The notes under the pieces were generated by a model. It was not told where the DNA came from and ran no database searches. It saw only the letters and a program-made list of their open reading frames with translations. Source: Squalus acanthias (taxonomy: Eukaryota). Taken from it: a DNA stretch of 64,000 nucleotides. Below are positions 1-42,215 of the stretch, piece by piece (the first letter of the stretch is position 1; every line of letters starts with the position of its first letter). The position numbers and the translations under genes were made by a program. The DNA lies in the NCBI GenBank assembly GCA_030390025.1, contig CM059432.1:67706001-67770000 (forward strand), written 5' to 3'.

Positions 1-110
1 GCATCTCACTCTCTAACCAAATGGCACCACAGGTGGCTCAGCTGTACATGGAGGGAGGAGGAAGATCGGGAATGCAATAGTGATAGGGGATTCAATAGTT
101 AGGGGAACAG

Positions 111-1777
111 TGTAAGGGTTTCTGACCCGTGTGGCTCTGTGCTCAGCCTGGGTGCTAGTGCGAGGTTAGGCCTTGTTGCCTGTTCTGGTCTCCAGCCAGT
201 CTGGGAGCACTAGACACCTGTGAGTGGTTCGACCCACTCGCCCTTACGGTTCTGACACTGGACTTAGGTGCGAGAGCAATAATGGAGAGAAAAACTCAGG
301 TAGACCCGGTTGAATGGTGCGAAATGGAAAATCTTTATTGCATATTATTCAAGATTATGAACTACATGTCATAAGCACAGATTAATGACAGTACAATCTT
401 ACACGCAGTTATGTAACTAATTTCAGGGAAACGAGGAACGAACGACACATCGTAAATGGGGGCACACATTACAGTTATCCTTAAAACTTAAACCCTCCCC
501 TATCAATACCTGCTCTAAACTAGATTTGTAGGATCGAGACTCATGCTCACCACTCGTGATAACTCGGAGAATTCCGAAAACTCTGATCGGATGTTTTCCC
601 CGCAGCACCTGATCACCCACGTGTTGATCAGGGGTCTCTGTACCCCACTTGTTTACTCGTTTCTGCTCCGGCTAGCAGGCTGGACCGTCTGCTGTCATGA
701 AGATCTGTGTTGTCCTCGGAGTTCCGACACGACTCGAAAAATAGTCTTCCTGTGCCCTCGCACTGATTCGATAAAACTCAAAGAATAGTCTTCCGATGCC
801 AGTTCTGTAGAACTCAAAGATGGTCTTCCTGGGCAAGGAAAGTGTCTATTCGACCTACAGGCACGGTCGGGGCTTACTGACCGTGGCGATACGTATGGTC
901 GTCTTCTTCTCTTCTCATCTCATCTCATCTCATCTCATCTCATCTCGTCTCGGGCCTTCGGTTCCAACACCGTTTACCGACTTCTCGGGATGGTGTGCCC
1001 GTTTCAAAGCTTCACAGCCCAGTTCCACACAGATCTTCGCGGCAAGCCACGAGGCTGATCCTGGCGGATCGTAAAGTTCAACAGTCTTTAAAAGCTGCAA
1101 GAGACAGAGACACGAGGCAAGCGGCAAGGAGTCGAAAGGATAAGAGAAAAATGGACGGTTGCAGCTTACAGTTATAGTGCGAACACTCTTCTTTTTCCCG
1201 CCCAACCTTAATGTCTTTTCTTTTGTTAGGGTTTTGGCGCTCAAATTTCTTGTATAGGGTGATCTCCGTTTAATGGGTTTCGGGGATACTCGTAACTGTC
1301 TGAGTACCTGTTAATACTTTTCCAATGTGTAACCGGTCGGTATTCTCCCTGAGGGGTTTTGGGGCTTCCAAATGTTTTCTGTAACTACCCGCAAACGGCT
1401 CTCTCATCGTAGAGTCGTGGGGATTTTGCATATTAATGTCTTTGGATGGGTTCTTGATCGCTTGGTACAATAGCCCTTATTCGCACCTGGGAGACCGATT
1501 CCAGTATTTATGTGTATACTGCAAACCCATAATGTCTCGTGTATTATCTCAAATGTGCTGAGTCTTGATCGATCTCGCACAAATGTTTATTGGAACGCCA
1601 TCTTGTCTGCTTATCGAAAAGTCTAGAATGTTCTGCCACGAGGCGTGGCGGCCATTTTTACAGGCTGCTTGTGTCCACTTTGAAAACCTGACAGCATTCT
1701 GCTGAAATAAAACTGTTTGAACGAAACTATGTGTTTTCTCCTTATTTATAAAATCGCGATATATTGCGAATTCTACA
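111..1777 (-). repeat. 3' LTR of provirus (1667 bp)
   Basis: Direct repeat of 11202-12859. Minus strand reads TGTAGAA...CCCTTACA. AATAAA at 339-334 and a (TCTCA)n tract at ~913-946. Confidence 0.95.
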
Positions 1778-1789
1778 GTCCCTCCTGTT
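1778..1789 (-). promoter_or_regulatory. Polypurine tract of provirus
   Basis: Minus strand AACAGGAGGGAC immediately precedes the 3' LTR. Confidence 0.7.
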
Positions 1790-2228
1790 GATGCGAATAA
1801 CTCCGCTTATCGTATCAAAAAATATTGTGGTGAGCAATATTATCTCGATTTCTCCAGATCCAGAAAAATAATCCCCATAACTTAAACTATCTAGGGTCTT
1901 TGCGTCGTCCTTATTTCCCAAAAAATTACATTCTTATAACACCGCAGGCATTATTTGCCTTTAAACTTACACCACTTGTTTTCCTTCCAGGCGTAACCAG
2001 GCCGATGCCTCTCGTATCACCTGTATATTCACATTTTTTATTTAGGGAAAGGAAAAACAAAACAAAACCAAACAATCATATTTAACAACAACACCATCAC
2101 CAAAAATAATCAAAACCAACTCTTAAACATGTCAAGTTCCGAACGTAATTACAGTTTCTGAGAAAATCACGATCGATTACAACACTTCCGAGGTGCACGT
2201 GGCAAACGGGAGTGACGCCATTTTCCGA

Positions 2229-4580
2229 TTACACGGTGCTTTCATCGTGCACGCGCACGTAACGTTCTCGCCACTCTCCCGTGTTTTCGTTCTTGGTGAG
2301 GCGTTTGCCTCTCTTACAATGTACGACCAATAAGTATACCACAATAAACACTTGGCATACAACTAAAATGTGGGAGGCTATTCTAATCCAGGAAGGCACT
2401 TCAATGTTGGTGAACAGATTCCACCACGGTGGAATTACTATGTCCAGAATGTCCGTCCCTATTTCGACAGTTTTCTGCTCTAAAGTGTAAAAATGTTTTT
2501 GTGACACCGCGACGGCTTTTAAAAGCTTGGTGAGGTGTTCAGGGAGAGGGGGAATGAGGTATCCGAAATGCGCGACGAATCGCTGCAGGTCGGTGAAGTT
2601 CTCTTTTACGGTAAGATGAACCGTGGATGGTTCAGGGATTGGGACAATTCGCTGTTGTGCTACTTGAACTTCTGCCCTGGGTTTAAAACAGAAACTGCTG
2701 TCACTCACCGGACACCGGCTACGGTTTCCATGCTGGTAGTGTTGCGCTGCAGTGGTAACACAATATGTTCCACCCCCGATGTATGCAACCTGCGGAGGCA
2801 CATGATCTTGTGCCATTGCCTCCATGGTGCAATTCATGGACTTGGCGCCAGCCGTTCTGAACCCGCACTGTGGTGGTAAAAAGGCATTCACGTGCTGGGG
2901 ACACAGTATTATGTGTGCTCCCCTGCCACGACAACCAGAGAGATCTGTACCTGTCATCGTTTGCTCCCAGCGGATGACGTAAGGTGGAACCGCTGCATAG
3001 CGAATGTGGGCTCCCCCCTGAATGACACCAATGTTCTCTACCCGATACACCGGGGCGGGCTTTGCTGTGTCGCCCAAAACCGTCATACGTAAAACTATAC
3101 CCATAATGGTATGGTTTGATCGTCCGCAGTCCACGGGGACTGGGTATGCTTCTGAAGCTAGCCTGAGCTGGCACGGGCTTAATGCGTTCTGAAAAGGGTG
3201 GAGCGCCCGCAGGTGTTTGTTACTTATCCAGGACGGGACCAAACCTTGTTTTAAATCCTCCAAATTACTGCGGCCCTCGCCCAGTAACCACGCCCCGTAA
3301 AGCATGCACACCTCGTTCTGCGCAGCTTGATCGGATGCATTCCGATCTTCCCTAATCAGGGCATTTACCGTTCTCGCGTGTTTCTCTAGTTCAGCTATTA
3401 TTTCTTTTAAATGGAGAGTCATGGCTTGGTCCTCGTGTAAACCCGACCCAACCACCTTATTTTCATCTGTGAGAATGTCTTTTAATTGCGTTTTTAAGCC
3501 ATTAATCTGGGTCTGCAGCTCCACGCTGTCTAGAGCGTTGACCACAGATGTACCTGTGTTGAAAGCAGTGAACGCGTCGTTCACAACACCCCTTCTTTGC
3601 CTCCCCACCTGATCAAAGACTTCATGTGGTGCGGTGTACAAACTTGTTTTATCAATTTCCGCGAAATCGAATTCGTAAAATTGTCTGAACATCTTGGTCA
3701 ACAGGACCTGATATAACTGTTCCGTCTTTTTGGGGCACCACTCTGGTAACCGCACCTCGGTGAGATTTAAAATCACCGAGGCCACCGCGTAATGTACCCC
3801 CTGAAATAGTATCTGGTCTGTGGGGACCAGTACCAAACCATTCCCGGGTCCCTTACTGGTTTTAGGGCACCCTTCTTCCTTAGCTAGAACCACCGGAATC
3901 GTGGGCGGGGCTTTGCGTGGGCGCGTAATGAGTTCAGTGGCATTTACTGGGATCGGGGAGAATGGGGCCCCGCACCCCCTGGTGCTCGCATCTCACCTCA
4001 TCCCCTGTCCGTTATCCTGCCATTGATTAATGAAAAATATGGAGATGCCTTTGGGGCAAACGTACTTTGACCCCCACATACATACATAAATTCCCTCATC
4101 CGGTTCCCACCATTTGTCCCAACAGACTCTCACTTGTCCGTTTGTCCCCGTAATTGTCCGATGGGTATTATTACCCAGTCGTTCCCACTCGACCGAAGAG
4201 TTCCTCATGTTTTTGCTCAGCTTTCGCAGCCACCACCATCGGCTCAATGGGACATTCCCACTGCAAGTCAAACAAATCCGTTTGCCGACGGTGACGCTGA
4301 TCCTGGGTGCGATGCTCCTTACTTTGGGGCACAGTAAAGAAGTCTCTTGGTAGGCAAACCCCGATGTGCTGGAATACTCCGTTGAGTTCGTTCCCAGCCA
4401 TCCTGGCCACCTTCCCTTGTGGAAATAGGTGGTGGTCTCCTCAGCCTCTCGTCTTCCGGTCCCATCCACCGCGATGGGGGCCGTGTCCCCGGAGCATCCA
4501 AACACCACGACATCCTTGGTGCGGCCTCGATAGGCCAATCCACATCCGATTGCCGCGAGCAATACTAGGATTCGTTCCAT
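2229..4580 (-). CDS. env: Envelope glycoprotein: signal peptide + Ig-like domain + F-like class I fusion protein, with one in-frame TGA at 3993-3995
   Basis: MERILVLLAAIGCGLA signal peptide. ORFs 3993-4796 and 2229-3893 are in the same frame (GMR*DASTRG...). RQRR|GVVNDAFTAF furin site and fusion peptide, heptad repeat, Cys-rich region, C-terminal TM helix and short tail. Confidence 0.88.
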
Positions 4581-4891
4581 CCTTCCTTGGTTCCTGTGAT
4601 CAGATAGAATGAGGTAGCCAGCCTCGCAAGAGTCTCTGGCTTTTGTGAAGGGTGAGCGGGTCCCCTGACCTCGCCTCACGTAAGCTTCAATGTTCGCTGG
4701 ATAAACTTTAACTAAACCTATCTCTAAAACTCCCATCATTTTACTTCTTTCTGTTAAACAAAATTTAACTACCGACTTAAACCGATTTAAAACCAAAACC
4801 TCATAACCTTATCTAAAACTATAAACTTATTCTTAACCTTGAACTATAAACTTATTACTGTACAGCGCCGCCCGTTCCCAGGGCGGCCCCT

Positions 4892-7800
4892 TTAAATTCT
4901 GAAAATGCTTCCGCGAGCTCTTCCCGACGGTGGGAGGGCATTGACCCCTCCCTTTGATCTGCCACAGCCTGTTGCTGCTGCGCTGGGACTGGGCTCTTCC
5001 TGGGCTGCCTTAACATTGAGTCTACGCCTTGGGGCAGTCTGGGGACTTGACCATATCTTCCTGGGCTGGGGTATCCGACCTGACCTACGGAGAGTTACCG
5101 GGGGCAGGAATCCCAGGACCGACGGACCGGGTTCCGAGACTTCCACCGTGGCGACCTGTGGTCCCTCCACAGTTGCTGGCTCCGCCTCCCCTGGCTCCGC
5201 CTCCCTGAACTCGGGACCTGCAGCTTGTGGCACCTTCCTACTCGGCCCAGCAGGCGGCCCTTCACTCGCAGTCCCTACCTCCCCCGAGGGCAGGACGTTC
5301 AAGGCGGGCGGCCCGGGCTCTGAGGCTTCCATCGCCACGCCCTGTAGTCCCACCACAGCGGCTGGCTCCGCCTCCCCTGGCTCCCCCCCCCTGCGTTCGG
5401 GACCTGTAGCTTCGGTTTCCACCCTGTGTGGATCTCTATCTGCAGCCCCTGTCCCCCCTATACCTGAATCGGGGGCGACCCTTTCGTCCTCCGATTCCAG
5501 CTCTTCCTCGTCACTACCTTCACTATCCTCATCTTCGTCGAGCTCCTCGAACTCTCCCTCATCTGACTCCCAACCCCACAAAAATGTCTCACAATTTTCC
5601 AGGATGTCCCCTTCCCTGATGCAAGCTGCTTTGCCTGCCTGTGTGCCCTGTGGCCCTACCTGGGGCTGCGAGTCCCCACTCGCAGGTTTTGCCCCTGTGG
5701 TTGGCCCTTGTGCACCTGGCTTGTACAGTTTGCACTGGTTTACGTGGAACCACTTAGTGCGCCGAGGTACCTTTACGGCGTATACCATGGGACTCGCCTT
5801 ATCTACAATGTTGTAGGGTCCCATATACAGTGGTTCCAGACTCCCTACTCTGGCGTAGTTTCTGACCATGACCTGGTCTCCTACTTCCCACTCCCACGTT
5901 TTGCGGGGTTCCAGCAACAGGCGATTGCCCTGATGCTGCCTTCCCATGTTCCCAGCCGCCTGCTCATAAACCTGCTTCAGGCGCTCCAAGAGGGTCTGGA
6001 CGAACTTGTCCCTGCTTATCTCTTGGAGCTGACCCTCAGTGAGCACCGGCGCTAGCACATGGGTGGGGATTCGCATGATCCTCCCAGTCATCACCTCGTG
6101 CGGGGAATACCCCGTACTTTTTGACTGACTGGCCCGGACCCCCATGAGGACTAGAGGCAGAACCTCCGCCCATTTTTGGGGCGAGTTCATAGTCTCTTTC
6201 CTCAATTTTTCCTTCAGGGTCCGGTTCATGCGTTCAACAATCCCGGATGACTGGGGATTGTGTGCTACGTGCCATTTCCCTTCAATGCCCAAAAGCATGA
6301 GGGTGTTCTGCATCACCTGGCCGGTGAAATGACTCCCTTGGTCTGACTCCACAAAACGGGGAAGTCCCCACCGCGAGAACACTTCCCAGACCAAGATTTT
6401 TGCAGTACCCAGTGCCGTAGCTGTTCGACAGGGGAAGGCTTCCACCCATTTGGAAAACACATCCACCAAGACGAGGCAGTATTTATAGCCTCCCTGGGTG
6501 GTGGGCAGGGGCCCTATATAGTCGATCTGTATCGACTGCCATGGTCCCTCTACCCTTCTTACGTGCCCCATGGGCACTTTCCTTTTCTGGGGGTCTGGGT
6601 TGTTTGCAGCGCACACGAGACAGCTTGCACAGAACTCGCGGACCTGTTCCCTGAGCCCCGGCCACCATCCCGCTTGCTCTACCCGTTGCCAGGTAACCTC
6701 GGGCCCGGGGTGCCCTGCCCCTGGTCCCTCGTGAGCCAACTGGAGGAATTCCCTCCTGTGCTGCTGCGGCACAACCCACTGCTCTTCGCGGAACAGCATG
6801 CCTTCCTTAACTGAGAGGGTTGCCGTACTGTACGGACCCTCTACCTGCTTCCCCTCAGCAAGGGTTTTGAGGACTGCTTTTAGGGCGGGATCCTGGTTCT
6901 GGACGGTCTTAAGGTCTAGGGGCAATGCTACCCTGGTGTTCCCAGGATTCCCGTCCCTGCCTTGGATCGCTGTCATGGGTCTGGGCCCATAGGGGTCCCA
7001 GAAAATGCCGTTGCGGGCACCCCCCCTGGCTAGCGCATCCGCCTGCTGGTTGCCCTCCCCACGGGGCTCTGTGGAGGAGTGAGCCTTCACCTTATGGATG
7101 AAAATCTCCCCTTCCTCCCCTACTGCTGCTAGGATATTTTCCAGCAAGGGCTTCACCGTTAAAGGTCGCCCGTCCGCGGAGGTGTATCCACGGCGGGACC
7201 AAATGGCCAGGTATTCCGTACACGAATTACATGTGAACATACTGCCCGAGCAAATCGTGTATGGGGTTGGGAAAATTTCTGGGTGGGTAACGACGTACAC
7301 CACTGCAGACAGCTCAGCCTGCTGCGCGCTCATAGTGCTAGGGAGCTTGATCGCCAGGGCAAGGTTTGCCGCAGGGTCATAAACTCCGCACCCTGTGAGT
7401 CGTTCGCCAGCAGATACTGTGCTGGAACCATCAACATAAATCTCGCGCCCAGTGGGATGTATCCCGGCCCGCAAGCCTATGTTGACTTCCCACACCCCTT
7501 CCACCGAACACTGGTGGGCTGTACCGGGGTATACCAAATTGGCCGCAAGCCTGGGCTCGCAAAGACCTTCAACTCTAAGATCCATCTGGGAAAGAAGAAG
7601 GGTCCAGCGCGCAATACGCGCGCTGCTTACGGTCCCATCTTTAATCCTCCCATCTAGAAGCATCTTAGTTGGTGTGTGATGGGTGAGGAGAGTGATGGGA
7701 GAGAGCCCTGTGAAGATCGCTGATCTTTTCACAGCCCAATGCGTGGCTAAAAGGTGCCTTTCGCAATTGGAGAAACTTCTCTCCACATCCGTTAACACCC

Positions 7801-9391
7801 TGGACGAATATACAACCGGCCTCAGCTTGCCGTGGCGCTCTTGGAGCAGCACAGCGCTCAAGCTGTCCCCGCTGGCAGCTACCTCCAGGAAAAACTCCTT
7901 CCCCCCATCTATGGCCCCTAAAGCTGGCGCGGTCTGCAGATCCCTTTTTAACTTCTCGAAGGCTGCTTGGCAGCCCTCGTCCCAAGACCACTCCACTCCC
8001 TTATGGAGGAGTCAGAGCAGCGGCGCCGCTGTGGCTGCATAGTCTTCGATAAAATCCCTGCAGTAACCGGTCAGTCCCAAAAAGGACCTCACACCCCTTA
8101 TGGTGTTGGGAATCGGTAACTCTTGCACCGACTCCCTCCTAGCCTTATCTATGGCTCTTTCCCCAGCGCGAATGGTCAGCCCCAGGAATTTTACTTCCTG
8201 CTGACCGATACGTGCTTTCTTAGGGTTTACTTTAAAACCCTTTCTCGCTAGCAGCTCCAATAACTCGGCCAGCAGTGGTCCATGCTCCTCCCTTGAATCC
8301 GTAAATAGGAGCAAATCATCCACGTACTGCACTATCTGATTGGGCTGACTAAACTCTTTTAAACTTCCTGCCATACACTGATGGAAAATACTGGGGCTGT
8401 TGTGGAAACCCTGTGGCAGACAGTTCCATGTGTACTGTTGTCCTTTGAAAGTAAAGGCAAACTTGTACTGGTCCTCTCGCCGCAGCGGGATGGACCAAAA
8501 ACCGTTTGAGATATCCAGCACCGTGAACGTGGTCGCGGACGCTGGGATACTCCCTATTACGTCAGCGACTGCTGCTACCGTGGGCGCACAGGCGAGAATG
8601 TTACTGTTAAGGACTCTGTAGTCCACCGTGGCCCTCCACGAATTATCCGGCTTCCTAACCGGCCATAATGGGGAGTTCACGTGTGTGGCTATCGGCCTCA
8701 ACACGCCCTGCTGCACCAAGGAGGACATTGCTGTCTCCATATCGGGTTCTGCTTCTTTGGGGAAGTTATACTGCTTTTGGGGCCGGGTCATGGGGTCCCC
8801 ATCTACGCTGACCTCAAACCCGGTAACCCTCCCACAATCGTGCTTGTGGGTTGCAAACGCGTGCATATTATCTGACACGTACGTTTGCATGTCCGTTGGG
8901 ACATCCGCGACCATAAGCCCGAGGTCGTAGCCTCCGGATGGCTTCATGGTACACAGGACCCCTGTTTCTTCCTCCCCCGGAATTACCACTACCTCGCCGT
9001 CTCCACCCTTAGCCCCCCAGAGACAGTGATTCCTGAGGTCCACGAGGATCCCGTGCCCTGATAGGAGATCGGACCCGAGGATACCTCTCCCACCCCCCTC
9101 ATGCCATTTCATCAGTATGCACTTCCACGTGATGTGGAGTGCTCCTAAACGAATGGATAGCGGAAGGGAGAACGCGTCAGCCTGTTCTTTTCCCGTGAAC
9201 CCCGCTAATGTGAATGGGACCTTGGTAGATAGCGGTGAGTCAAAAGGGCTATCTGTATGAATCACGGTGCAAGAAGCTCCCGTGTCCAACAAATAACTAC
9301 CCTTCTGTTGCTCTACCTCCATTTCCACCAGGGGTCGCTTCCACGCATCATAGCTGAGCGGACACAGGTAGACGGGCTGCGCGGGCTCTAG
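4892..9391 (-). CDS. pol: Pol polyprotein (protease, RT, tether, RNase HI, integrase, acidic tail) with one in-frame TGA at 8012-8014
   Basis: LLDTGAS protease; LPQG and YVDD RT; degenerate Gypsy-type RNase H (LEVAAS...RPVVYSSR); second RNase H (IYVDGS, AQQAEL, HKVKAH, GNQQADALA); HHCC, D-D-E integrase and GPY motif. ORFs 8012-9328 and 4892-7996 share one frame (APLL*LLHKGVEW). Confidence 0.93.
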
Positions 9392-11197
9392 TCATTGGGT
9401 ACTATTAGATGGGCCTGTGGCACCTGCGGGGCCGGTAGCAACCGCCACTTTTCCATGCGCACTCATGAGGTTACGCATGGCTCCCAACACTGTTTCGATC
9501 GCGTCGGGAGGGATGGGTGCACTAGCTTCCCTATCAGAGACAGGCGCCTGGGCTCGGGCTGCGGGATTTTTATCCCTGGAATCCTTCCAAGGGTTCCTGC
9601 AGTTCTTGTGCCAGTGCCCTGTCTTCCCACACCCGTAACAAGCATTACTGGCCTGCGGCGCGCGGTTACCCTCCTGATGCCACTCCTTTTGAGCCGGGGC
9701 TGCGGGTCGTGCCTCATGCACCTTTCCCTTAAGGGGACGTGCTCCCATACTTCTGGTATTACGGTACCCCACCGTGAGTCGATTTAGGACCGACTCCTCT
9801 GTAGTGGCGGGGTCAGTGGGATCAAACCACGCTTTTGCCTGCTCCCTGACGGCTGGCAAACTGTTGGTTACTATACACCTGAGCCAATGAGTTAAGCCGG
9901 TGTCTGTCACATCGGCGCACTCTGGCGCACCTGGGCAGCTACGCTGGTATACTGGCCACAGCCTGTCGGCGAAAACCTTCGGGGGTTCTCCCTCCATCTG
10001 CACTGTCTGTCCTAGTCTAACAAACGGACCTTCATCGTCCGCTCCCAATACTTCTAGGACCTCATTTCTTAGTGCCCCATAGGTCTTAGTTCCCCTCTTG
10101 CTCTCGTCTGAGAGACACTGAAGGATCGAACTACCCAATGAGAATAACAGCATCTTTGCTGTTTCCCCATCGTCGCAGCCGTTAATGGCTGCGGTTTGCT
10201 CTATTTCCCTAAAATGTACGGAAGGGTCGTCTGACTCGGCCAGCTTCAGTACGTGACTGATCATAATCCTCAGCTGGTGTGAGCTGTGAGGCAACACAAG
10301 CTGGTTGAGGAGATCCCCTTGTTCCCCACCGTCTCTGTTCGGGCCCCTTTTGATGCCCGTGACCGGACACAACGGTCCCGGTTCCACTTCTACCTCGGTG
10401 GGCTCTTTCGTTACTTCCACCACTTTCTCCCTTACCCAGGTTTCCGAATAGCTGGGTGGCGCGGAGGGCATAGTGGCTAATACTTCCTCTGCTTTGTTCG
10501 GTGGGGATTTCTGAAATCCCTCATCCACTAGCGGCTGGTGTGCTGACGGACTGATAAGGCACACCATGCCGTGCGCTTTGTTCACGGCCCTTTTAAGGTG
10601 CTCTATCTCCTTTTGGCAGACGCTGTGATCGGCCCCCTGAAATTTATCCTCGAGGGCCATCTTATATGCCGCCCTAACCCCCGTTAAGCTCTCTTCCTGG
10701 GCTTTTATTTGGGCAGCTTGGCGGGCACATCGTTCCTTTAGTCTGCCCTCACTTAACTTTGCCTCAGTGACCTGGCACTCGAGGTAATCTATTTTTGCTT
10801 TATGGTGGCTGGTGACTACCTGGCGTTCTTGATGCAACGCATTTAAATTCGTAATGAGCAACTGCCCCCCAGTGACCTTCTCGTCCATTTCCACCTCTAA
10901 ACGCCTGATCCGAGCTGCTTGCGCTGTAATGACCTGGTCCGAAATTTGGACTTGTCTTTTATAGCACATCAGCCAGACCGCTTTCTCCACTGTCTTTTTG
11001 TGTTCCTTGCTATCTGTCCACCTCTCGGCTGCCTCTAGTGGACACTTATCCACTAGCAGGTCACTTATCCATTTCTTAGTTAAATTTACTTTTCCGAACA
11101 CATAATCTGCTATTCTCTCTTCCATGACATTTCGCCCAATCATACCAAACTCTAACACATTACCCTCTCGCTGCCAGTGTCCTGCCGCGGTCGCCAT
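9392..11197 (-). CDS. gag: Gag polyprotein (N-terminal coiled coil, PSAPPSY late domain, capsid-like region, one CCHC zinc knuckle)
   Basis: 601-aa ORF directly after the LTR, with CYGCGKTGHWHKNC knuckle, heptad-rich N-terminal third and PSAPPSY. Confidence 0.9.
   Translation of the reverse strand: MATAAGHWQREGNVLEFGMIGRNVMEERIADYVFGKVNLTKKWISDLLVDKCPLEAAERWTDSKEHKKTVEKAVWLMCYKRQVQISDQVITAQAARIRRLEVEMDEKVTGGQLLITNLNALHQERQVVTSHHKAKIDYLECQVTEAKLSEGRLKERCARQAAQIKAQEESLTGVRAAYKMALEDKFQGADHSVCQKEIEHLKRAVNKAHGMVCLISPSAHQPLVDEGFQKSPPNKAEEVLATMPSAPPSYSETWVREKVVEVTKEPTEVEVEPGPLCPVTGIKRGPNRDGGEQGDLLNQLVLPHSSHQLRIMISHVLKLAESDDPSVHFREIEQTAAINGCDDGETAKMLLFSLGSSILQCLSDESKRGTKTYGALRNEVLEVLGADDEGPFVRLGQTVQMEGEPPKVFADRLWPVYQRSCPGAPECADVTDTGLTHWLRCIVTNSLPAVREQAKAWFDPTDPATTEESVLNRLTVGYRNTRSMGARPLKGKVHEARPAAPAQKEWHQEGNRAPQASNACYGCGKTGHWHKNCRNPWKDSRDKNPAARAQAPVSDREASAPIPPDAIETVLGAMRNLMSAHGKVAVATGPAGATGPSNSTQ
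11179..11196 (-). promoter_or_regulatory. Primer binding site, tRNA-Arg(TCG)
   Basis: Minus strand TGGCGACCGCGGCAGGAC, 5 nt after the 5' LTR, is complementary to ...GTCCTGCCGCGGTCG-CCA, the 3' end of vertebrate tRNA-Arg(TCG) as I recall it. Confidence 0.85.
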
Positions 11198-11201
11198 TTT
11201 C

Positions 11202-12859
11202 TGTAAGGGTTTCTGACCTGTGTGGCTCTGTGCTCAGCCTGGGTGCTAGTGCGAGGTTAGGCCTTGTTGCCTGTTCTGGTCTCCAGCCAGTCTGGGAGCA
11301 CTAGACACCTGTGAGTGGTTCGACCCACTCGCCCTTACGGTTCTGACACTGGACTTAGGTGCGAGAGCAATAATGGAGAGAAAAACTCAGGTCGACCCGG
11401 TTGAATGGTGCGAAATGGAAAATCTTTATTGCATATTATTCAAGATTATGAACTACATGTCATAAGCACAGATTAATGACAGTACAATCTTACACGCAGT
11501 TATGTAACTAATTTCAGGGAAACGAGGAACGAACGACACATCGTAAATGGGGGCACACATTACAGTTATCCTTAAAACTTAAACCCTCCCCTATCAATAC
11601 CTGCTCTAAACTAGATTTGTAGGATCGAGACTCATGCTCACCACTCGTGATAACTCGGAGAATTCCGAAAACTCTGATCGGATGTTTTTCCCGCAGCACC
11701 TGATCACCCACGTGTTGATCAGGGGTCTCTGTACCCCACTTGTTTACTCGTTTCTGCTCTGGCTAGCAGGCTGGACCGTCTGCTGTCATGAAGATCTGTG
11801 TTGTCCTCGGAGTTCCGACACGACTCGAAAAATAGTCTTCCTGTGCCCTCGCACTGATTCGATAAAACTCAAAGAATAGTCTTCCGATGCCAGTTCTGTA
11901 GAACTCAAAGATGGTCTTCCTGGGCAAGGAAAGTGTCTATTCGACCTACAGGCACGGTCGGGGCTTACTGACCGTGGCGATACGTATGGTCGTCTTCTTC
12001 TCTTCTCATCTCATCTCATCTCATCTCGTCTCGGGCCTTCGGTTCCAACACCGTTTACCGACTTCTCGGGATGGTGTGCCCGTTTCAAAGCTTCACAGCC
12101 CAGTTCCACACAGATCTTCGCGGCAAGCCACGAGGCTGATCCTGGCGGATCGTAAAGTTCAACAGTCTTTAAAAGCTGCAAGAGACAGAGACACGAGGCA
12201 AGCGGCAAGGAGTCGAAAGGATAAGAGAAAAATGGACGGTTGCAGCTTACAGTTATAGTGCGAACACTCTTCTTTTTCCCGCCCAACCTTAATGTCTTTT
12301 CTTTTGTTAGGGTTTTGGCGCTCAAATTTCTTGTATAGGGTGATCTCCGTTTAATGGGTTTCGGGGATACTCGTAACTGTCTGAGTACCTGTTAATACTT
12401 TTCCAATGTGTAACCGGTCGGTATTCTCCCTGGAGGGGTTTTGGGGCTTCCAAATGTTTTCTGTAACTACCCGCAAACGGCTCTCTCATCGTAGAGTCGT
12501 GGGGATTTTGCATATTAATGTCTTTGGATGGGTTCTTGATCGCTTGGTACAATAGCCCTTATTCGCACCTGGGAGACCAATTCCAGTATTTATGTGTATA
12601 CTGCAAACCCATAATGTCTCGTGTATTATCTCTAATGTGCTGAGTCTTGATCGATCTCGCACAAATGTTTATTGGAACGCCATCTTGTCTGCTTATCGAA
12701 AAGTCTAGAATGTTCTGCCACGAGGCGTGGCGGCCATTTTTACAGGCTGCTTGTGTCCACTTTGAAAACCTGACAGCATTCTGCTGAAATAAAACTGTTT
12801 GAACGAAACTATGTGTTTTCTCCTTATTTATAAAATCGCGATATATTGCGAATTCTTCA
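11202..12859 (-). repeat. 5' LTR of provirus (1658 bp)
   Basis: By eye it differs from the 3' LTR by ~7 substitutions, one 1-bp indel and two fewer TCTCA units. Confidence 0.95.
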
Positions 12860-13639
12860 ACAGAGAGGTGTTTCCACGACTGCAGACGTGAATCCAGGAT
12901 GGTATGTTGCCTCCCTGGTGTCAGGGTTAAGGATGTCACTGAGTGGCTGCAGAATATTCTGAGGGGGGAGGATAAACAGCCAGAGGTCGTGGTCCATATT
13001 GGTATCAACGACAATGGTAGAAAGAGGGATGAGGTCCTGCAGGCAGATTTTAGGGAGCTAGGAAATAAATTAAAAAGCAGGACCTCAAAGGTAGTATTCT
13101 CCAGATTACTCCCAGTGCCACAAGCTAGTGAGTATAGAAATAGGAGGATAGAGCAGATGAATGCGTGGCTGGAGAAATGGTGCAGGAGGGAGGGCATAGA
13201 TCTCTGGGACATTGGATCCAGTTCTGGGGGAGGTGGGACCTGTACAGGCCGGACGGGTTGCACCTCAACAGAGTTGGGACCAATATCCTCGCGGCGAGGT
13301 TTGCTTGTGCTGTTGGGGAGAATTTAAACTAATTTGGCAGGGGGATGGGTACCAGGATGTAGCATTAGAAAGGAGAAACAAGGTGAACAAAAGATTGGGA
13401 GAGACAGACAGCACTAGAGTAAGAAATGGTACTGTATTAGGTGGGGTCAGACTAATAGAGAATACAAGAATGTCTAAGATAGGTTTACAGTGCATGTGTG
13501 TAAACGCACGAAGCGTGGTAAATAAGGTTGATGAGCTGCAGGCACAAATAGCGACATGGGAATATGATGTCGTGGCGATAATGGAGACCTAGCTCAAAAA
13601 CAGGCAGGATTGGGTATTAAATATTACTGAATATAAGCT

Positions 13640-13860
13640 GAGACTGGAAGGAGTGGACCTGGAGGGAGCACAGCGAGAGCGGAGCAGTTAAAAGGAGCAG
13701 TCCCGAGCGGCAGGAGTATGAGACTGGAACGAACGGATCTGGAGGGAGCACAGTGAGAGCGGTGCAGTTAAAAGGAGCAGTTCTGAGCAGCAGGAGCCTG
13801 AGACTGGAAGGAGCGCACCTGGAGGGAGCACAGCGAGAGCGGAGCAGTTAAAAGGAGCGG
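13640..13860 (+). repeat. 80-bp tandem repeat (~2.75 copies) in CR1 5'UTR
   Basis: GAGACTGGAA... units start at 13640, 13720 and 13800. Confidence 0.85.
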
Positions 13861-16800
13861 CAGCAACTCAACAGAGGCAGTTTTTGAAAAGTGACGTCAG
13901 AGTAAAAAAAGTGACGTCAGCACAAGGGAAGGAGCTGATTGGTGAGTAGCTGGTGAGTGTATTTTTTTTTTAAGTTTATAAGTTTATTTCTGCTAAATTA
14001 GTTAATAGCCAATTGAATAGAGGGAAAAAGCTGACTGGTGAGTAGCTGGGGAGTGTTTTTTGTTAAGTTTTAATTTATTTCAGCTGGGTTAGTTCTTAGT
14101 CTATTAAATAGAGGCATGGCAGGGCAGCTCAGTCTCGTGGAGTGCACATCCTGTGCCATGTGGGAAGTCTTGGATGCTTCGCATAGCCTGGACAACCACA
14201 TGTGCAGGAAGTGTCACCAGCTACGGCAGCTCGAACTCCGGGTTTCGGAGCTTGAGCAGTGGCTGGAGTCACTGCGGTGCATCCGCGAGGCTGAGAGTTA
14301 TGTGGATAGCACGTTTCTAGAGGTGGTCACCCCGCAGCTTAAGAATATGCAGGCAGAGACGGAATGGGTGACTGCCAGACAGAAGAGGAGGACCAGGCAG
14401 GTAGTGCAGGAGTCCCCGGAGTGCATCGCACTCTCCAACCAGTATTCTGTTCTGAGTACTGGTGAGGGTGATGGTTCCTCTGGGGAGTGCAGCCAGAGTC
14501 AAGTCCATGGGTGGCTCAGCTGCACAGGGGGGGAGGAAAAAGATTGGAAGAGCAATAGTGGTAGGGGATTCGATAGTTAGGGGAGCAGACAGGCGTTTCT
14601 GCAGCCGCAGATGTGATTCCAGGATGGTAGGTTGCATCCCTGGCGCCAGAGTCAAGGATGTCACTGAGCAGTTGCAGGTAATTCTGAGGGGGGAGGGTGA
14701 ACAGCCAGAGGTCATTGTCCATATCAGTACCAACGACATAGGCAGAAAGAGTGATGAGGTCCTGCAGGCAGAGTTTAGGGAGCTAGGAGAGAGATTAAAA
14801 AGCAGGACCTCAAAGGTAGTAATCTCCAGATTACTCCCGGTGCCACGTACTAGTGAGTACAGGAATAGGAGGATAGAACAGATGAATGCGTGGCTGGAGA
14901 GATGGTGCAGGAGGGAGGGCTTTAGATTCCTGAGGCATTGGGACCGTTTCTGGGGAAGGTGGGACCTGTACAAGCCAGACGGGTTACACCTCAACGGAGC
15001 TGGGACCAATATTCTCGTGGGGAGGTTTGCTAGTGCTGTTGGGGAGGGTTTAAACTAGCTTGGCAGGGGGATGGGCACCAGCATATAGGAGTAGAAAAGA
15101 GGAATAAGGTGCATAAAAGAGTGAGTGTGTTGGATAGTACTAGAGAAGAGAGTACTAAAGGCAGTAGTAGTACCATATTAGATAGGAGCAGACTAAGAAA
15201 GACTACAAAAATTCAAAAATGGGTTTAGAATGCATATACGTAAACGCACAAAGTATGGTGAATAAGGTTGGTGAGCTACAAGCACAATTAGCCATGTGGC
15301 AATATGATGTTGTGGCAATAACGGAAATGTGGCTTAAAAATGGTGAGCACTGGGCACTTAATATTCAAGGGTACAAGGTGTTCAGAAAAGATAGGGAAGG
15401 AAAAAAAGGAGGTGGGGTGGCAGTGCTGATTAAGGAAGACATTGTAATGTTGGAAAGGGAGGATGTTCTTGAGGGGACAAGGACAGAATCCATTTGGTTA
15501 GAGTTGAGGAGCAAAAAGGGTATGATTACGTTATTGAGGGTATTCTCTAGGCCTCCAAATAGTGAGGGGGAGGTAGAGGAGCAAATCTGCAGGGAAATCA
15601 CAGAGATATGCAAGAGCTATAGAGTGGTGATATTGGAGGACTTTAATTACCCAAATTATAATGCAAGGGTAAAGGGAAAGGAGGGGGAGGAATTTTTGAA
15701 ATATGTTCAGGAGAATTTCCTTGACCAATATGTTCTTGGCCCAACTGGGAAGGAGGCATTGCTGGATCTGGTGCTGGGGAATGAGGTGGGCCAGGTTGAC
15801 CAAGTATCTGTGGAACTTCTAAACTGGAATAAGGCTAACTTCAATGGGATGCGAAAGGTTCTAGCCAGGGTAGAATGGAACCAAAGACTGACAGGAAAAA
15901 CTGTAACGGAACAATGGGTGATCTTTAAGGAGGAGATGTTCCAAGTACAGGCTAGGTACATTCCAACAAGAGGGAAGGGTAAGGGAACCTAAGCAAGGGC
16001 TCCTTGGATGACGAGGGAGATAGAGAAGATGATGAAACAAAAAAAGAGTGTGTATGATGCATGTCAGGTGAATTCTTCATGGGAGAACCAGACCAAATAC
16101 AATAAGTTGAGAGGAGATGTGAAGATGAAAATAAGATTGGCAAAGAGAGAATATGAGAGTAGAATGGCGGTTAACATAAAAGGGAACCCAAAAATCTTCT
16201 ACCAGCATATAAACAGCAAGCGGGTGTAAGAGGCGGGGTGGGACCTATTAGAGACAAAGAAGGTGATATATGCTTAGAGGTGCAGGGCAAATCTAGAATA
16301 CTCAAAGATTACTTTGTATCGCTGTTTAGTAAGGAGGTAGATGCTGACAAAATACCGGTAGAAGTGGAAAAAGTAGAAACAATGGAAGGGGTGAAAATTA
16401 ATAGACAGGATGTTCTCGAAAGGCCAGGTATGCTTAGAGTGGACTAGTCGCCTGGTCCAGATGGCTTGCATCCCAGGTTGCTAAGGGAATTGGGGGAGGA
16501 GATAGCGGAAGGGCTTGCCATAATTTTCCAATCTTCCCTAGATACGGGGGAGGTGCCTGAGGATTGGAAAGTGGCAAATGTGACACCATTGTTCAAGAAA
16601 GGGTGTAAGGACAATCCCAGTAACTACAGGCTGGTCAGTTTAACATCAGTGGTGGGTAAAGTTTTAGAAACAATAATCAAGGAAAAAATTAACGGGCACT
16701 TGGAGAGCCAACACGGATTTGTAAAAGGCAGATCGTGTTTCACTAATCAAATTGAATTTTTTGATGAAGTAACAGAGAGGATTGATGAAGGGAATGCAAT

Positions 16801-17962
16801 GGATGTTGTCTACATGGATTTTCAGAAGGCGTTTGACAAAGTACCACATAGAAGGCTTCTTAACAAACTTGAGACTCATGGAATAGATGGGTCAGTGGCA
16901 GCTTGGATAAGGAATTGGCTTAAGGACAGAAAACAGTGAATTGTGGTAAATAGCTGTTTTTCAGACTGGAGGATGGTAGACAGTGGTGTACCCCAAGGGT
17001 CAGTGCTGGGGCCACTGCTTTTTTTGATATATATAAATGACCTGGATATTGGAATACAGAGTAGAATTTCTAAATTTGCTGATGACAACAAACTTGGGGG
17101 TGTGGCAAACAGTGATGATGATATCAATCGACTGCAAAAGGACATGGAAAGGCTAGCAGAATGGAAGTGTGAGGTGATGCATTTTGGCAGAAGGAACAAG
17201 GAGAGGCAATATACACTTAATGGCACAGTTTTAAAGAATGTGCAGGGACAGAGAGACAGAGAGACCTGGGAGTTAATGTGCATAGGTCCCTGAAGGTGGC
17301 AGGACATATTGAGAGAGTGGTTAGCAAAGCATATGGGATCTTGGGCTTCATAAATAGAGGTATTGAGTACAAATGTAGAGAAGTTATGTTGAAACTTTTT
17401 AAAGCGCTGGTTAGGCCACAACTGGAGTATTGCGTCCAGTTCTGGTCACCACACTTTAGGAAGGATGTGAATGCCCTTGAGAGGGTGCAGAGGAGATTTA
17501 CCAGAATGGTTCCGGGGATGGGGGATCTTAGCTACAAGGACAGGTTGGAGAAGCTGGATTTGTTTTCATTAGAGCAAAGGAGGTTGAGGGGTGATTTGAT
17601 AGCGGTGTATAAGATTATGACGGGTTTGGATAGGCTCAACTGGGAAAGGCTGTTCCAACTAGTTGATGGTACAAGGACTAGGGGACACAGATTCAAGGTT
17701 TTGGGCAAGAGATACAGTGGGGATGTGAGGGAAAACCGTTTTACGCAGCGAGTGGTGAGGACCTGGAATTCGCTGCCGTCGGCAGTGGTGGAAGCGGAGA
17801 CACTCAATGTTTTCAAGGGGAGACTGGATAGGCACCTGAGGGAAATAAACTTGCAGGGCTACGGGGATAGAGCGGGGGAATGGGACTGACTGGATTGCTC
17901 TACAGAGAGCCGGCACGGACTCGATGGGCTGAATGGCCTCCTACTCTGCTGTTATGACTCTA
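13640..17962 (+). mobile_element. Near full-length CR1 LINE (5'UTR, zinc-finger/esterase ORF1 14116-15058, APE-RT ORF2 ~15219-17889), with frameshifts and stops
   Basis: CxxC..CxxC plus leucine zipper, GDS and DGLH esterase motifs, APE motifs, SPGPDG, PQGSVLGP, KFADD, RPQLEYC. The (TATGACTC)n tail continues at 18735-18746. Confidence 0.92.
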
Positions 17963-18734
17963 GGGCTGGATTTTCAATGACCCGTGGAGTCGGGTTTGGA
18001 GGCGTGTGGGGGGTTAAAGTTGCAAATTCGGGGGTCCCGACCCCATCCCGACTCCATTCCGCCTCCACGCAATTTTGACAAAATTGGTCGCGGTGTTCCC
18101 GACTCCGTCCGGCCTCCAAGAGGCGGGAGAGGCCATTAAAGCCCTTAACAAGCCCTAAATTGGCTCTGTAATGCCATTTTGAAACGTTTTAGCTAGTTTA
18201 ACCCTTTTCCGACATGAAGTACGCCTGATGTGAAACACGCCAGTGAAACCTGGTGGGAGCACAAGTGGATAGCTGACTATCAGCTGCAGGTCCACTATTA
18301 CAACGGAGATGTGATGAAGATAGTAGTAGTATTGTGATGAAGGTAGTAGTAGTATTAGGTCTGAAAGTCGCCTCTGATGCTGCTGCATTGAATGTCTTCA
18401 GAGACTGCCTGGGAGGAGTTGTTTGCAAAAAAAATTCATTCTCTCTCTCTCTCTCTCTCTCTCTGAGATGCTGCTCATTTTGCATCCAGGTCCTCTCACA
18501 GCAAAGGCCAGGCAATCTCTGAGACCAGGCAGTCTCTGACCTGCAATGATGACATCATCAGAGACGACTTTCAGACTGAAACCACTAATTGGTTCATGGG
18601 TTCCCACATGCTGGAACTAAATTGCCCAATTAAGTGAAAATTGCATCAATCTCCCACATCCAATTGCAGGCAGATGGATAACACGAAATGCGGATGGCAC
18701 GACCACAACCCACCCCAGTATCAAAATCCAGCCC
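17963..18734. mobile_element. Non-autonomous Harbinger-like MITE in CR1 tail
   Basis: TIR GGGCTGGATTTT/AAAATCCAGCCC with TA on both sides. Shares internal sequence with 42216-42566. Confidence 0.8.
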
Positions 18735-20847
18735 TATGACTCTATGTTCAGTTGAGATAGGGAAGGAAAGAAAGGAGATGGGGTGGCAGTATTGATTAAA
18801 GAGAATGTTACAGTGCTGGAGAGAGAGGATGTCCTGGTGGGGTCAAGGACCTCTATTTGGTTAGAGTTAAGAAACAATAGAGATGTCATTACACTACTAG
18901 GTGTATTCTATAGACCACCAACTAATGGGAAGGATATAAAGGAGCAAATTTGCAGGGAAATTAGAGAGTTGCAAGAACTATAGAGTAGTGATAATGGGTG
19001 ACTTCAACTATCCTAATATAGACTGGGATAGTAATAGTGTATAGGGCAGAGAGGGAGAAGAATTTCTGAAGTGTGTTCAGGAGAAGTTTCTTCATCAGTA
19101 TGTTTCCGGCCCAACAAGGAAGGAGGCATTGCTGGATCTGGTTCTGGGGAATGTGGTGGGTCAAGTGGAGCAAGTATTAGTAGGGGAACATTTAGAGAAC
19201 AGTGGTCATAGTATCATAAGGTTGAGATTAGCTATGGAAAAGGACAGGGAGCAATCCAGAGTAAAAAATACTTAATTGGATGAAGGCTAATTTCAGTGAG
19301 TTGAGAATGGATCTGGCCTGGGTAAATTGGACTCAAAGATTGGCAGGCAAATCTGTAATGGAACAATGGGCTGCCTTTAAAGAGGAGATGGTTCGGGTAT
19401 AGTCGAGGTACATTCCCACGAGGTAAAAGGTAGGGCAACCAAAGTCGGAGCTCCCTGGATGTCGAAAGAGATAGAGAGAAAGAGGAAGCAGAAAAAGGGC
19501 GTATGACAGATGTCAGGTTGAGAATACAAGTGGGAATCAGGCTGAATATAGAAAGTTTAGAGGGAAAGTGAAAAAGTAACTAGGAGGGGCAACGAGAGAG
19601 TATGAGAATAGATTGGCAGCTAACATAAAAGGAAATACAAAAGTCTTCTATAGGCATATAAATGGTAAACGGGTAGTAAGAGGAGGGGTGGGGCTAATTA
19701 GGGACCCAAAAAGGAGACCTACGCATGGAGGCAGAGGGCATGGCTGAGGTACTAAATGAGTACTTTGCATCTAAATGAGTCTTCACCAAGGAGGAAAATG
19801 TTGCCAAAGTCATAGTGAAAGAGGAGGTAGTTGAGATACTGGATGAGATAAAAATTCATAAAGAAAAGGTACTAGAAAGGCTGGCTGTACTTACAGTAGA
19901 TAAGTCACCAGGACAGGGTTGGATGCATCCTAGGATACTGAGGGAAGTAAAGGTAGAAATTACGGAGGTACTGGCCATAATCTTCCAATCCTCTTTAGAT
20001 ACGGGGGTGGTGCCAGAGAACTGGAGAATTACAAATGTTACACCCTTGTTCAAAAAAGGGTGTAAAGATAAACCCAGCAACTACAGGCCATTTAGTTTAA
20101 CCTCAGTGATCTTTTAGAAATGATAATCTGGAACAAAGTTAACAGTCACTTGGACAAGTGTGGATTAATTAAGGAAAGCCAGCATGGATTTGTAAAAGGC
20201 AAATCGTATTTAACTAACTTGATTGAGTTTTTTGATGAGGTAACAGAGAGGGTTGATGAGGGCAATGCGGTTGATGTGGAGTACATGGATTTCCAAAAGG
20301 CGTTTGATAAAGTGCCACATAATAGGCTTGCCAGCAAAGTTGAAGTCCATGGAATAAAAGGGACAGTGGCAGCATAACGAACTTGTCTACGTGACAGGAA
20401 ACAGAGAGTAGTAGTGAACGGTTGTTTTTCAGACTGGAGGAAGGTTCACCGTGGTGTTCCCCAGGGGTCAGCACTAGGACCACTACTTTTCTTGATATAT
20501 ATTAATGACTTGGACTTGGGTGTACAGAGCACAATTTCAAAATTTGCAGATGACACAAAACTTGGAAGTATAGTGAACAGTGAGGAGGAGAGTGATAGAC
20601 TTCAAGAAGACATAGACAGGCTGGTGGAATGGGCAGGACACGTGGCAAATGAAATTTAACGCAGAAAAGTGCGAAATGATACATTTTGGTAGGAAGAACG
20701 AGGAGCGGCAATATAAACTAAAGGGTACAATTCTGCAGGGGGTGCATGAACAGAGATGCCTGCGAGTATATGTGCACAAATCGTTGAAGGTGGCAGGGCA
20801 GGCTGAGAAAGCTGTTTCAAAAGCATACGGGATCCTGGGCTTCATCC

Positions 20848-21330
20848 TGGACACTGAGACAACGTATGAACGAGCACCGCGCAACAATCGCCAGGCAGGA
20901 TTGTTACCTCCCAGTCGGGGAACACTTCAGCAGTCAAGGACATTCAGCCTCGGATCTGCGGGTAAGCGTTCTCCAAGGCAACCTTAGAAACACACGACAA
21001 CGCAAAATCATCGAGCAGAAACTGATAGCCAAGTTCCGCACTCATGAAGACGGTCTCAATCGGGATCTTGGGTTTATGTCACGATACATGACGTGATCCG
21101 GACTCGAGTCGTCGTTAGCTTGTTCACAGATGTGATTCCCAGTAAAAAAGTAAAAATTTTCCCAGTAAAAAAGTAAAATTTTTTTTAAAGCTTTTCGTTT
21201 TACATACAGACGGCAGCTTTTGACACGTTGGAACCCCTGCGACTACACCTCATTGTCTCAGTTGTATCTTGCTATGTCTTTTGATGTGGTACCTTCCTGG
21301 CTGACTTAATTAACTTTATCACACCTCGGC
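20848..21330 (+). mobile_element. Penelope-like element 3' fragment (GIY-YIG endonuclease C-terminus) inserted in CR1
   Basis: RMNEHR...VGEHFSSQGHS...EQKLIAKFRTHEDGLNRD motif; CR1 is interrupted at GILGFI|RGIEYK. Confidence 0.8.
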
Positions 21331-22084
21331 AGATATAGAGGCATAGAGTACAAAAGCAAGGAAGTTATGATGAACCTTTATAAAACCCTGGTCTGACTTC
21401 AACTGGAGTTTGTGTCCAATTCTGGGCATCGCAGTTTAGGAAGGATGTGAAGGCCTTAGAGGGGGTGCAGAAAAGATTTACAAGAATTGTTCCAGGGATG
21501 AGAGACTTCAGTTATGTGGATAGACTGGAGAAGCTGGGGTTGTTCTCCTTAGAGTAGAGAAGGTTGAGAGGAGATTTGATAGAGGTGTTCAAAATCATAA
21601 GTGGTCTAGACAGAGTAGATAGAGAGAAACTGTTCCCATTGGCGAAAGGGTCGAGAACCAGAGGACACAGATTTAAGGTGATTGGCAGAAGAACCAAAGG
21701 TGACATGAGGAAAAACTTTTTTACGCAGCGAGTGGTTAGGATCTGGAATGCACTGCCTGAGAGGGTGGTGGTGACAGATTCAATTGTGGCTTTCAAAAGG
21801 GAATTGGATAAGTATCTGAAGGAAGAAAATTTTGCAGAGCTACGGGGGAAGGGCGGGAAAGTGGGACTAGCTGAAGTGCTCTTGCACGGAGAGCCAGCAC
21901 AGACTCAATGGGAAAAGTGGCCTGCTCTGTGCTGTAACCATTGTATGATTCTATGATTCTATGATTTTAAGTGGTGGGGACTGTAGTTGCATCTTCTCAA
22001 TTCTGGTAACATCTTTGTAAATCTTTTCTGCACTTTCTCCAGTGTTTCAATATGCAAGCCAGGGTTGCAATGAGTGAATGACTT

Positions 22085-38779: not shown

Positions 38780-39377
38780 GTTGCCATGTGACTTTCTGCC
38801 TCAGTACTACAATTTTTCATAAAAGTTCCTGGAGGTAGTGAAAATGCTAATTTCTGAGCAGATCTGAGTGATAGCAAATCATTTAACATGACAAATGTTT
38901 TGCTGTAACAATGATCGAATATGAAACTTCATAGGAAGCAATGACTAAACCATCTTGTTGTGCTGGTTCATTCTGTGCTGTACATGGAGCAGAGTGAACT
39001 AGTACAACAGTTGATGGGAAAATTTTAGCGTATTGTGTGCATAGAAACAAAATATATTGTCAATGAAAAGGAAGATTAAAAATTTGTTGGATTCCTTTTC
39101 TTCATTGGCCATGATAAGGAAAATATTTAATCTTATTTCTCCTGCCAGAATGTTAAACCCAACATCAACTTTAGTGAGTTGTGAGACAATTATGAACCGA
39201 TTGAAATCCTTATGCAACCTATTCGACTGCATTTCATTATAACCTACTGCCCTTTTGCCATTATTTTCGAAAAGACCCAACTGGGGCCAGATGTTGCATA
39301 GTGTGCTGTCAGAACACAAAAAAAATCATTTAGAAATTTAAATCGTATAAATATGCATGAATGAGAAGAAAGAATCT

Positions 39378-40500: not shown

Positions 40501-41507
40501 AACAATCAATCATGCCACAGTAAAGGGCCAGGGTGAACAATTACATCAGGAATTTGTTTCAATTTCAGTTTTTAATTAGGCTTTTTCACTACGTAGGATG
40601 TCATTTCAGATGAACAATAAATAATTTAATAGGATTCTCCTTTTCTGTCACAATTTGTTTTAAATCAACTGATATGAATCAGGATGTATTACTCCTAATA
40701 TCATTTACTCCCAACAGCTTAAACCACAGCAGCTATAGAGTATCAGTTTGTTTTTAATTTACAGTCAGATCACATGTATTGATCCTGGAAGTTCATTATG
40801 TATGTTACCTGCCACAAGTCCATGATGATGGGTCCACCTCCAAAACATTAACCTTTTCTCTTTACAGACCCCGATGGACCCATTGTGTATTTCTAGCATC
40901 ACCTATTTTACTACAAGTCTATGGCATTGATTTTCCAGTTGTTGGAAATGACATATATTTAATTTCACAGTGTTTTCTTATGCATTAACTGATTTGTATG
41001 TTTTTCAAGTGTATTACTATTAAGTTTTCTGTTTTGTTACTCCATGCATACCTCCAGCTGTACAATTTTAATTGGGACATTCGACATTGTAAAACCGCAG
41101 CAGTAGTGTCTAAGATTCCCAAGGTAACAAAGCAGTTGATTTGTTATCTCCGCAGGTTACTGTACTTCTCCCTCAAGCACTGATCCAAATTCAACGCTAT
41201 CAACACATTGAAGGTTGCAGGGTCTGAATCAATGTTCCTAGTTATTAGTTTATGCTCATTGTCTTAAAGGGGCAGCATCTTCAAAAGCTTTTATTTCACT
41301 TATTAACACACGGCACAATAAATTTCATTTAAAAACCTGGATCATAAAAACATAAGAACATAAGAAATAGGAGCAGGAGTAGGCCATTTGGCCCTTTGAG
41401 CCTGCCCTGCCATTCAATCTCAATTCCACTTTCTCGCCCAATCACCATATCCCGTGATTCCCCTAGAGCCCAAAAATCTATTGATTTCAATCTTGAATAT
41501 ACTCAAA

Positions 41508-42206: not shown

Positions 42207-42215
42207 AAAGACTCA

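Follow-up and report, generated by a model that had tools for sequence, protein, structure and literature searches.

A UGA-CUAG stop codon between gag and pol of an endogenous retrovirus of Squalus acanthias, a probable signal for programmed readthrough

Introduction

When the gag gene of a retrovirus ends in a stop codon that is in frame with pol, the question arises of how Pol is made. We address it here for an endogenous retrovirus (ERV) of Squalus acanthias, found on the minus strand of contig CM059432.1 (assembly GCA_030390025.1) in a stretch of 64,000 nucleotides (nt) covering positions 67,706,001 to 67,770,000, which we call the window and whose coordinates we use throughout. The gag stop of this element is a UGA followed by CUAG, and a preliminary description of the window had proposed that Pol is produced by programmed suppression of this UGA. 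Textbook retroviral readthrough relies on UAG plus a pseudoknot. Our analysis supports programmed UGA-CUAG readthrough as the best explanation, on the strength of a stop that behaves as a family trait in protein relatives and in four DNA runs, and we estimate at about 85% the probability that the family makes its Pol in this way. The novelty would lie in the signal, since the mechanism itself is known.

The gag-pol junction

The reverse complement of 9388-9397 reads CAA TGA CTA G, with the TGA at 9394-9392. The translation across the junction is ...STQ*LEPAQPVYLCPL..., with the gag stop in the frame of pol, as the preliminary description had read it. The distance from the stop to the next Met is 69 nt, the first Met being codon 24 after the stop, and not the 63 nt given there. 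The junction frame is open for 613 codons upstream of the stop and for 459 downstream. The features that meet here are:

9395..11197, minus strand: gag, 601 amino acids (aa), with an ATG overlapping the primer-binding site (from the reading frame)
9395..9397, minus strand: CAA (Gln), the last sense codon of gag, whose A is at -1 (from the sequence; a divergent subfamily is aligned only up to 9395)
9392..9394, minus strand: UGA stop of gag, in the pro-pol frame, the proposed readthrough codon (from the reading frame; position kept in Gag relatives)
9388..9391, minus strand: CUAG at +1 to +4 after the stop, completing the type II motif UGA-CUA(G) (from the sequence; motif as defined in PMC13517186)
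4892..9391, minus strand: pro-pol in the gag frame (Pfam RVP, RVT_1, RT_RNaseH, RNase_H, Integrase_H2C2 and rve)

A type II signal in the Beier-Grimm classification is a UGA followed by CUA or CGG, with an open functional frame downstream and a stop conserved across relatives; its readthrough depends on the 3' context, and for UGA-CUA an extended 3' stem-loop is a conditional feature. The junction has UGA-CUA, an open functional frame follows it, and the stop is conserved across relatives, as described below. The stop and its +1 to +4 context are also identical to those of alphavirus nsP3/nsP4 and vertebrate cellular type II sites (PMC13517186), the leaky motif to which the preliminary description had likened it, although the host element is a different one. 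UGACUAG supports at least ~1.3% readthrough (PMC13517186), and in cells 2.0% was obtained with the UGA-CUA of Sindbis virus (SINV) on its own (PMC3159437). With 4 matches where 8.4 are expected, the window shows no enrichment of the 7-mer, and CTAG directly follows 13 of the 2100 codons of the gag-pol frame (0.6%). What is above chance in the motif is its position, at the stop between the zinc knuckle and the protease.

On the full-length RNA, most ribosomes would terminate at the UGA and release the 601-aa Gag. The CUAG at +1 to +4 would weaken termination, possibly with the help of a downstream structure, and a few per cent of the ribosomes would decode the UGA by a near-cognate tRNA, with Arg, Cys or Trp, the usual residues at UGA (PMC13517186), as the likely insertions. 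Decoding would then continue in frame into protease, reverse transcriptase (RT), RNase H and integrase, yielding Gag-Pol at a low ratio to Gag.

Conservation of the stop

This copy carries two further in-frame stops, a TGA at 8014-8012 inside the RT and another at 3995-3993 in an env-like frame, neither of them mentioned in the preliminary description, and decay was therefore the first rival explanation that we examined. With the stop at 8014-8012 this copy cannot make full Pol, and our proposal therefore concerns the family. Had the family a single open gag-pol frame, the UGA would be one more lesion, and such frames do occur: in the annotation of the distantly related coelacanth protein P0006 (43% identity) the frame is fused and the stop column holds a residue, and gag-pol forms a single frame in 10 of 24 lokiretrovirus sets (PMC7947760).

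However, three Gag relatives terminate at the matching position. The proteins P0121 (from a skate, the closest named Gag relative), P0122 and P0124, which share 56%, 45% and 34% identity with the window Gag, end 12, 13 and 13 residues past a shared terminal motif, compared with 12 in the window, and two of these three full-length relatives have a C-terminal Gln like the window Gag. No fused Gag-Pol was found among 2515 long candidates, which is weak evidence.

For variants we turned to four DNA runs, each from a different organism, whose contigs gave 524, 301, 85 and 26 records on 9100-9700; the results cover the 40 best-supported of 131 difference sites on 9100-9700. None of these 40 falls within 9340-9403. 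Sites at which the window copy differs from all others do exist among them (9177, 9310, 9323, 9410, 9609 and 9659), and a private decay stop would be expected to resemble these; the stop has no listed variant. Two contigs in each of two runs, from a divergent subfamily, match the window as far as 9395, the -1 base, and lose their similarity beyond it on the gag side; judging by this end point, the subfamily probably keeps the UGA. Word depth peaks at 9352-9372 in three of the four runs; other peaks are as high, and we did not use this as evidence.

The stop at 8014-8012 behaves otherwise, all 14 aligned relatives running past its column in pol, and a random stop would precede CTAG in 0.6% of cases. 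Decay is thus a highly improbable explanation, and the comparisons indicate that the gag stop is a trait of the family. The preliminary description had suggested looking for conservation across copies and relatives, and had seen a sense codon in the consensus as the outcome that would contradict it; the stop position is kept in the three Gag relatives, no variant is listed, and the outcome was in its favour.

Junctions of related retroviruses

A single-sequence scan of viral contigs found no relatives at the DNA level; a query with a Pol alignment gave eight loci, two of them (L007 and L008) fragments and the other six of readable length. The six represent four independent deep-branching elements. 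In all four, gag and pol share one frame, with a single UAG located 31-32 codons before the catalytic Asp (36 codons in the window). Their junctions are:

L001: UAG-GGC, type III
L002: UAG-GGA, type III
L003/L004: UAG-CGC
L005/L006: UAG-CAA-UUA, type I

The RT of L001 is 44% identical to that of the window, and its junction matches the hexanucleotide UAGGGC published for snakehead retrovirus (SnRV; PMC13517186). Deep-branching retroviruses of fish and frogs, SnRV among them, resemble the window element in having a one-frame gag-pol with one stop shortly before the protease, but the UAG-GGC of SnRV is of type III and the UGA-CUAG of the window of type II. L001 also has a primer-binding-site-like stretch similar to that of the window. 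SnRV-related ERVs have been reported from a chimaera (PMC4422223), and no pseudoknot was found after the SnRV and WDSV stops (PMC3835772).

The UAG-CAA-UUA of L005 (2915-2926) and L006 (2467-2478), both metagenome contigs, is the type I motif of tobacco mosaic virus, here at an in-frame gag-pol junction. The RT of this element falls inside the retroviral clade, and type I readthrough is absent from animal viruses according to a 2026 review (PMC13517186). L003 and L005 have YCDD as RT active-site motif, not YVDD or YMDD.

The gammaretrovirus MoMLV follows the same logic as the window element, with an in-frame stop and low-level Gag-Pol, but it uses UAG-G plus a pseudoknot and belongs to a different RT clade. 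Of 10 gamma-type genomes, 9 showed TAG-G at the junction (the reading of L013 was in a shifted frame), and L020, whose RT is in the gamma/epsilon clade, has UGA-AGA. The contrast with gammaretroviruses drawn in the preliminary description is less sharp than given there. UGA has been published at the gag-pol junctions of SSSV (UGAAGA), ZFERV (UGACGA) and an ERV of the toad Rhinella marina (UGAAGU) (PMC13517186), and TGA at that of XtERV-S (PMC8278194), in frame as in the window and with readthrough proposed. None of the first three has UGA-CUA. Since UGA at fish and frog gag-pol junctions is already published, only the CUAG context would be new.

Some lokiretroviruses share UGA-CUAG with the window. 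The first 300 of the 318 pages of the supplement of PMC7947760, with frames judged by eye and line breaks that may hide matches, contain 17 matches to the 7-mer, at least four of them in frame between gag and the protease motif. These in-frame junctions belong to Loki-Ofa, Loki-Cne, Loki-Pyo and Loki-Sau, at least 4 of the 24 sets (the junctions of Loki-Bsp and Loki-Ape were not readable), and one of them reads CAA-UGA-CUAG. In the available main text of that paper the terms "stop codon", "readthrough" and "frameshift" do not occur, pol is begun at a downstream codon, and no lokiretrovirus is reported from 3 chondrichthyan genomes (PMC7947760). A possible further likeness lies in F-like features of the window env (a lead only); the window RT, in contrast, is not of the loki type.

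Readthrough and a UGA stop are both known for retroviruses, and it is the UGA-CUAG context that appears to be undescribed in Retroviridae. We found no description of a retroviral UGA-CUAG gag-pol junction in searchable full texts, a set that leaves most subscription papers outside, so its absence from print is not proven. The available text of the 2026 review has no retroviral UGACUA and no mention of "lokiretrovirus" or "shark", and it calls the cis-elements of fish and unclassified retroviruses unclear (PMC13517186).

A broader reading, which we favour by a little over even odds when taken as a whole, is that this would be the first type II signal in Retroviridae and that deep-branching vertebrate retroviruses swap freely among the three Beier-Grimm classes at a homologous junction, L005/L006 representing type I, the window together with the four lokiretroviruses type II, and L001 with L002 type III. 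If so, short context motifs, rather than the pseudoknot, may be the old retroviral way of setting the Gag:Pol ratio. A retroviral family with UGA-CUAG would offer a short, directly testable signal and, once its relatives' junctions of types I and III are added, a natural series for studying how a recoding site moves from class to class. Annotation pipelines begin Pol at a downstream codon, which trims the N-terminus of the protease in such families.

RNA structure downstream of the stop

The preliminary description had pointed to a possible structure in the GC-rich sequence 3' of the stop. Folding gives one candidate:

9299..9386, minus strand: possible extended stem-loop, +6..9 with +90..93 and +20..26 with +74..80 (predicted pairs)

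The predicted pair probabilities of this stem exceed 0.95, yet the 100-nt fold scores z = +0.38 against 300 shuffles, and the 150-nt fold after the stop is likewise no better than chance (z = -1.39). Along gag-pol, 32 folding windows range from z = -4.3 to z = +1.9. Four of the five variants listed within 9299-9386 (best-supported sites) fall on unpaired bases. The stimulatory stem of alphaviruses, which starts 8-9 nt after the stop (PMC3159437), has no supported counterpart in the window.

The relatives L001 (2202-2266), L002 (3123-3187), L003 (170-231) and L004 (1291-1352) have in common a 7-base-pair (bp) stem that starts at +9, closes 55-60 nt later and resembles the alphavirus extended stem-loop. 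At two of its pairs L001 and the others differ in both bases (judged by eye from the pair lists), and it goes beyond shuffles in L001 only (z = -2.4). The L001 stem is not present at that place in the window. Rfam gave nothing at the junction beyond one chance match (E 0.72), and no family, SECIS included, at E<=0.5 across 1-13000.

Alternative routes to Pol

Several observations weigh against the readthrough of a conserved stop. A single listed contig piece bridges the stop with at least 31 letters on both sides, and 91 of the 131 difference sites lie outside the stop-variant result, so that rarer variants at the stop are possible. The comparison with P0121, P0122 and P0124 is at the level of protein and not of the codon and CUAG, and the ends of P0122 and P0124 could be contig ends. 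To these points are added the fused frames of P0006 and of the ten lokiretrovirus sets, a 3' fold no better than shuffles, and the gag-UGA-pol junction of Tca2, which alone directed no readthrough in yeast (PMC2194720). Finally, an AG at +38 that follows a pyrimidine-rich stretch might act as a splice acceptor. Pol would then come from a spliced RNA, either a separate pol mRNA as in foamy viruses or one from which an intron with the stop had been removed, and the conserved stretch after the stop would be a splice signal plus protease coding sequence. The preliminary description had named a spliced pol, as in foamy viruses, as a second outcome that would contradict it, and the evidence bearing on this is indirect. 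The pyrimidine share upstream of this AG is 0.71, where the 90th percentile of 582 AGs is 0.59, and an acceptor there would retain nearly all of the protease; in addition, CUAG itself terminates in YAG, and among PDB entries the RT matches foamy-virus RTs best. The window RT, however, is placed outside the foamy clade, and in the four foamy genomes checked (4/4) gag and pol overlap in different frames, unlike in the window element. For the AGs at +4, +6 and +15 the pyrimidine share is just 0.41-0.47, and the divergent subfamily is purine-rich immediately before the stop (by eye). Splicing, which we consider unlikely, would also leave unexplained why the relatives retain a single in-frame stop in known readthrough contexts.

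On an unspliced RNA, the stop could be bypassed by something besides the local CUAG, such as a distant RNA element, for which Tca2 is a precedent (PMC2194720), or selenocysteine insertion. This would suit a local fold that is not significant, but UGACUAG has been validated in vertebrate cells as a motif that acts by itself, and the Rfam search of 1-13000 returned neither SECIS nor any other family at the threshold used; we regard such a bypass as very improbable. Pol could also be started separately at the first AUG after the stop, through an internal promoter, reinitiation or leaky scanning. The annotation of P0001 begins at the Met matching this AUG, 69 nt past the stop, and Tca2 has a minor promoter at its junction (PMC2194720). 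Against this, the protease begins upstream of the first Met: the Pfam RVP match starts at residue 17 after the stop, and residues 16-23 align with HIV-1 protease residues 5-12, ahead of Met 24. Pol therefore cannot simply initiate there, and a protease begun at this Met would lack what corresponds to residues 1-12 of HIV-1 protease. Neither L001 and L002 nor L003 and L005 conserve the Met, and L001 and L002 have no Met at all ahead of the catalytic Asp. As for reaching Pol by a frameshift, 9251-9700 contains no X-XXY-YYZ slippery heptamer, and upstream of the junction both remaining frames stay open for only 3 and 23 codons. We give a separate start or a frameshift hardly any credence, and programmed readthrough of the UGA remains the reading that we prefer.

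Phylogenetic position

The RT tree had 34 rows, with alpha-, beta-, delta- and lentiviruses not included. It agrees with a first tree made by a quick method, which lacked L003 and L005 (removed by a motif filter and present in the second tree) as well as P0027 and P0054 (too short). The window RT is inside the retroviral clade, with support of 98/98 against Ty3/gypsy and a loki-type RT. The gamma/epsilon clade (100/98) excludes it, and the window stop is UGA, not UAG; the foamy clade (100/100) excludes it as well, and its pol does not overlap gag in a different frame. It is located in an open basal fork together with L001, whose junction matches that of SnRV, with no supported grouping of the two, and it joins amphibian and coelacanth NYNRIN-like Pols at 82/82 only.

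Because of the NYNRIN-like names and the F-like env we considered a lokiretrovirus, and rejected it on the RT: a lokiretrovirus RT is expected as sister to those of all other retroviruses, whereas the window groups with retroviruses proper, and P0028, whose loki label rests on a by-eye match to an RT in the supplement of PMC7947760, is outside (98/98). ERV4 was set aside, since it has no zinc finger and a 5-bp duplication (PMC4299795). The window element represents a deep-branching, non-gamma/epsilon and non-foamy ERV family, probably one of cartilaginous fish.

The provirus

The junction is inside a young provirus of 12.7 kb on the minus strand, from 12859 to 111, flanked by a 4-bp target-site duplication (CTGT). 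The element is an endogenous retrovirus (Retroviridae), and besides gag and pro-pol it has the following features:

11202..12859, minus strand: 5' long terminal repeat (LTR), 1658 nt, TG...CA
11179..11196, minus strand: primer-binding-site-like 18-mer, 5 nt past the 5' LTR
2229..4808, minus strand: env-like frame, with an immunoglobulin (Ig)-like N-terminal part, a furin-like site and an F-type fusion-like part (language-model features, leads only)
111..1777, minus strand: 3' LTR, 1667 nt, TG...CA, 99.0% identical to the 5' LTR

The LTRs are unusually long (1.66 kb) and hold a 5-nt microsatellite whose copy number is unequal between 111-1777 and 11202-12859. The primer-binding-site-like 18-mer is identical at 13 of 18 positions to the corresponding stretch near the 5' end of L001, and both stretches presumably fit arginine tRNAs; no tRNA gene that would confirm the primer is present within the window. 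The probable gag start codon is at 11197, and P0121, P0123 and P0124 likewise begin with M-A-T. As the likely gag start overlaps the primer-binding site, this site would double as gag coding sequence.

Gag has a single CCHC zinc knuckle, located 68 residues ahead of the stop, and an N-terminal half with a coiled-coil look (by eye); it matched no Pfam family at E<=0.01. After the stop, the order of pro-pol is protease, RT, tether, RNase H and integrase. The env of lokiretroviruses resembles Mononegavirales F (PF00523); the env-like frame of the window had no Pfam match. Its feature scores to the Baculo_F, Gypsy and Fusion_gly clusters are 0.89-0.92, with low recognition, and it seems to join an Ig V-set-like N-terminal domain to an F-type fusion-like part, on an element with a retrovirus-type RT (a lead). 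P0003 also has an Ig-like tail, by eye.

Other elements in the window

A second young LTR element, of Ty3/gypsy type, is located at 34360-38779 on the minus strand. Its 183-nt LTRs are 100% identical, and it has a single open frame of 1325 aa with protease, RT, RNase H and integrase. At 13639-13878 there are three copies of an 80-nt tandem repeat. Many diverged repeat copies occupy 12861-21800 and 39373-58961, and these resemble CR1-type LINE fragments.

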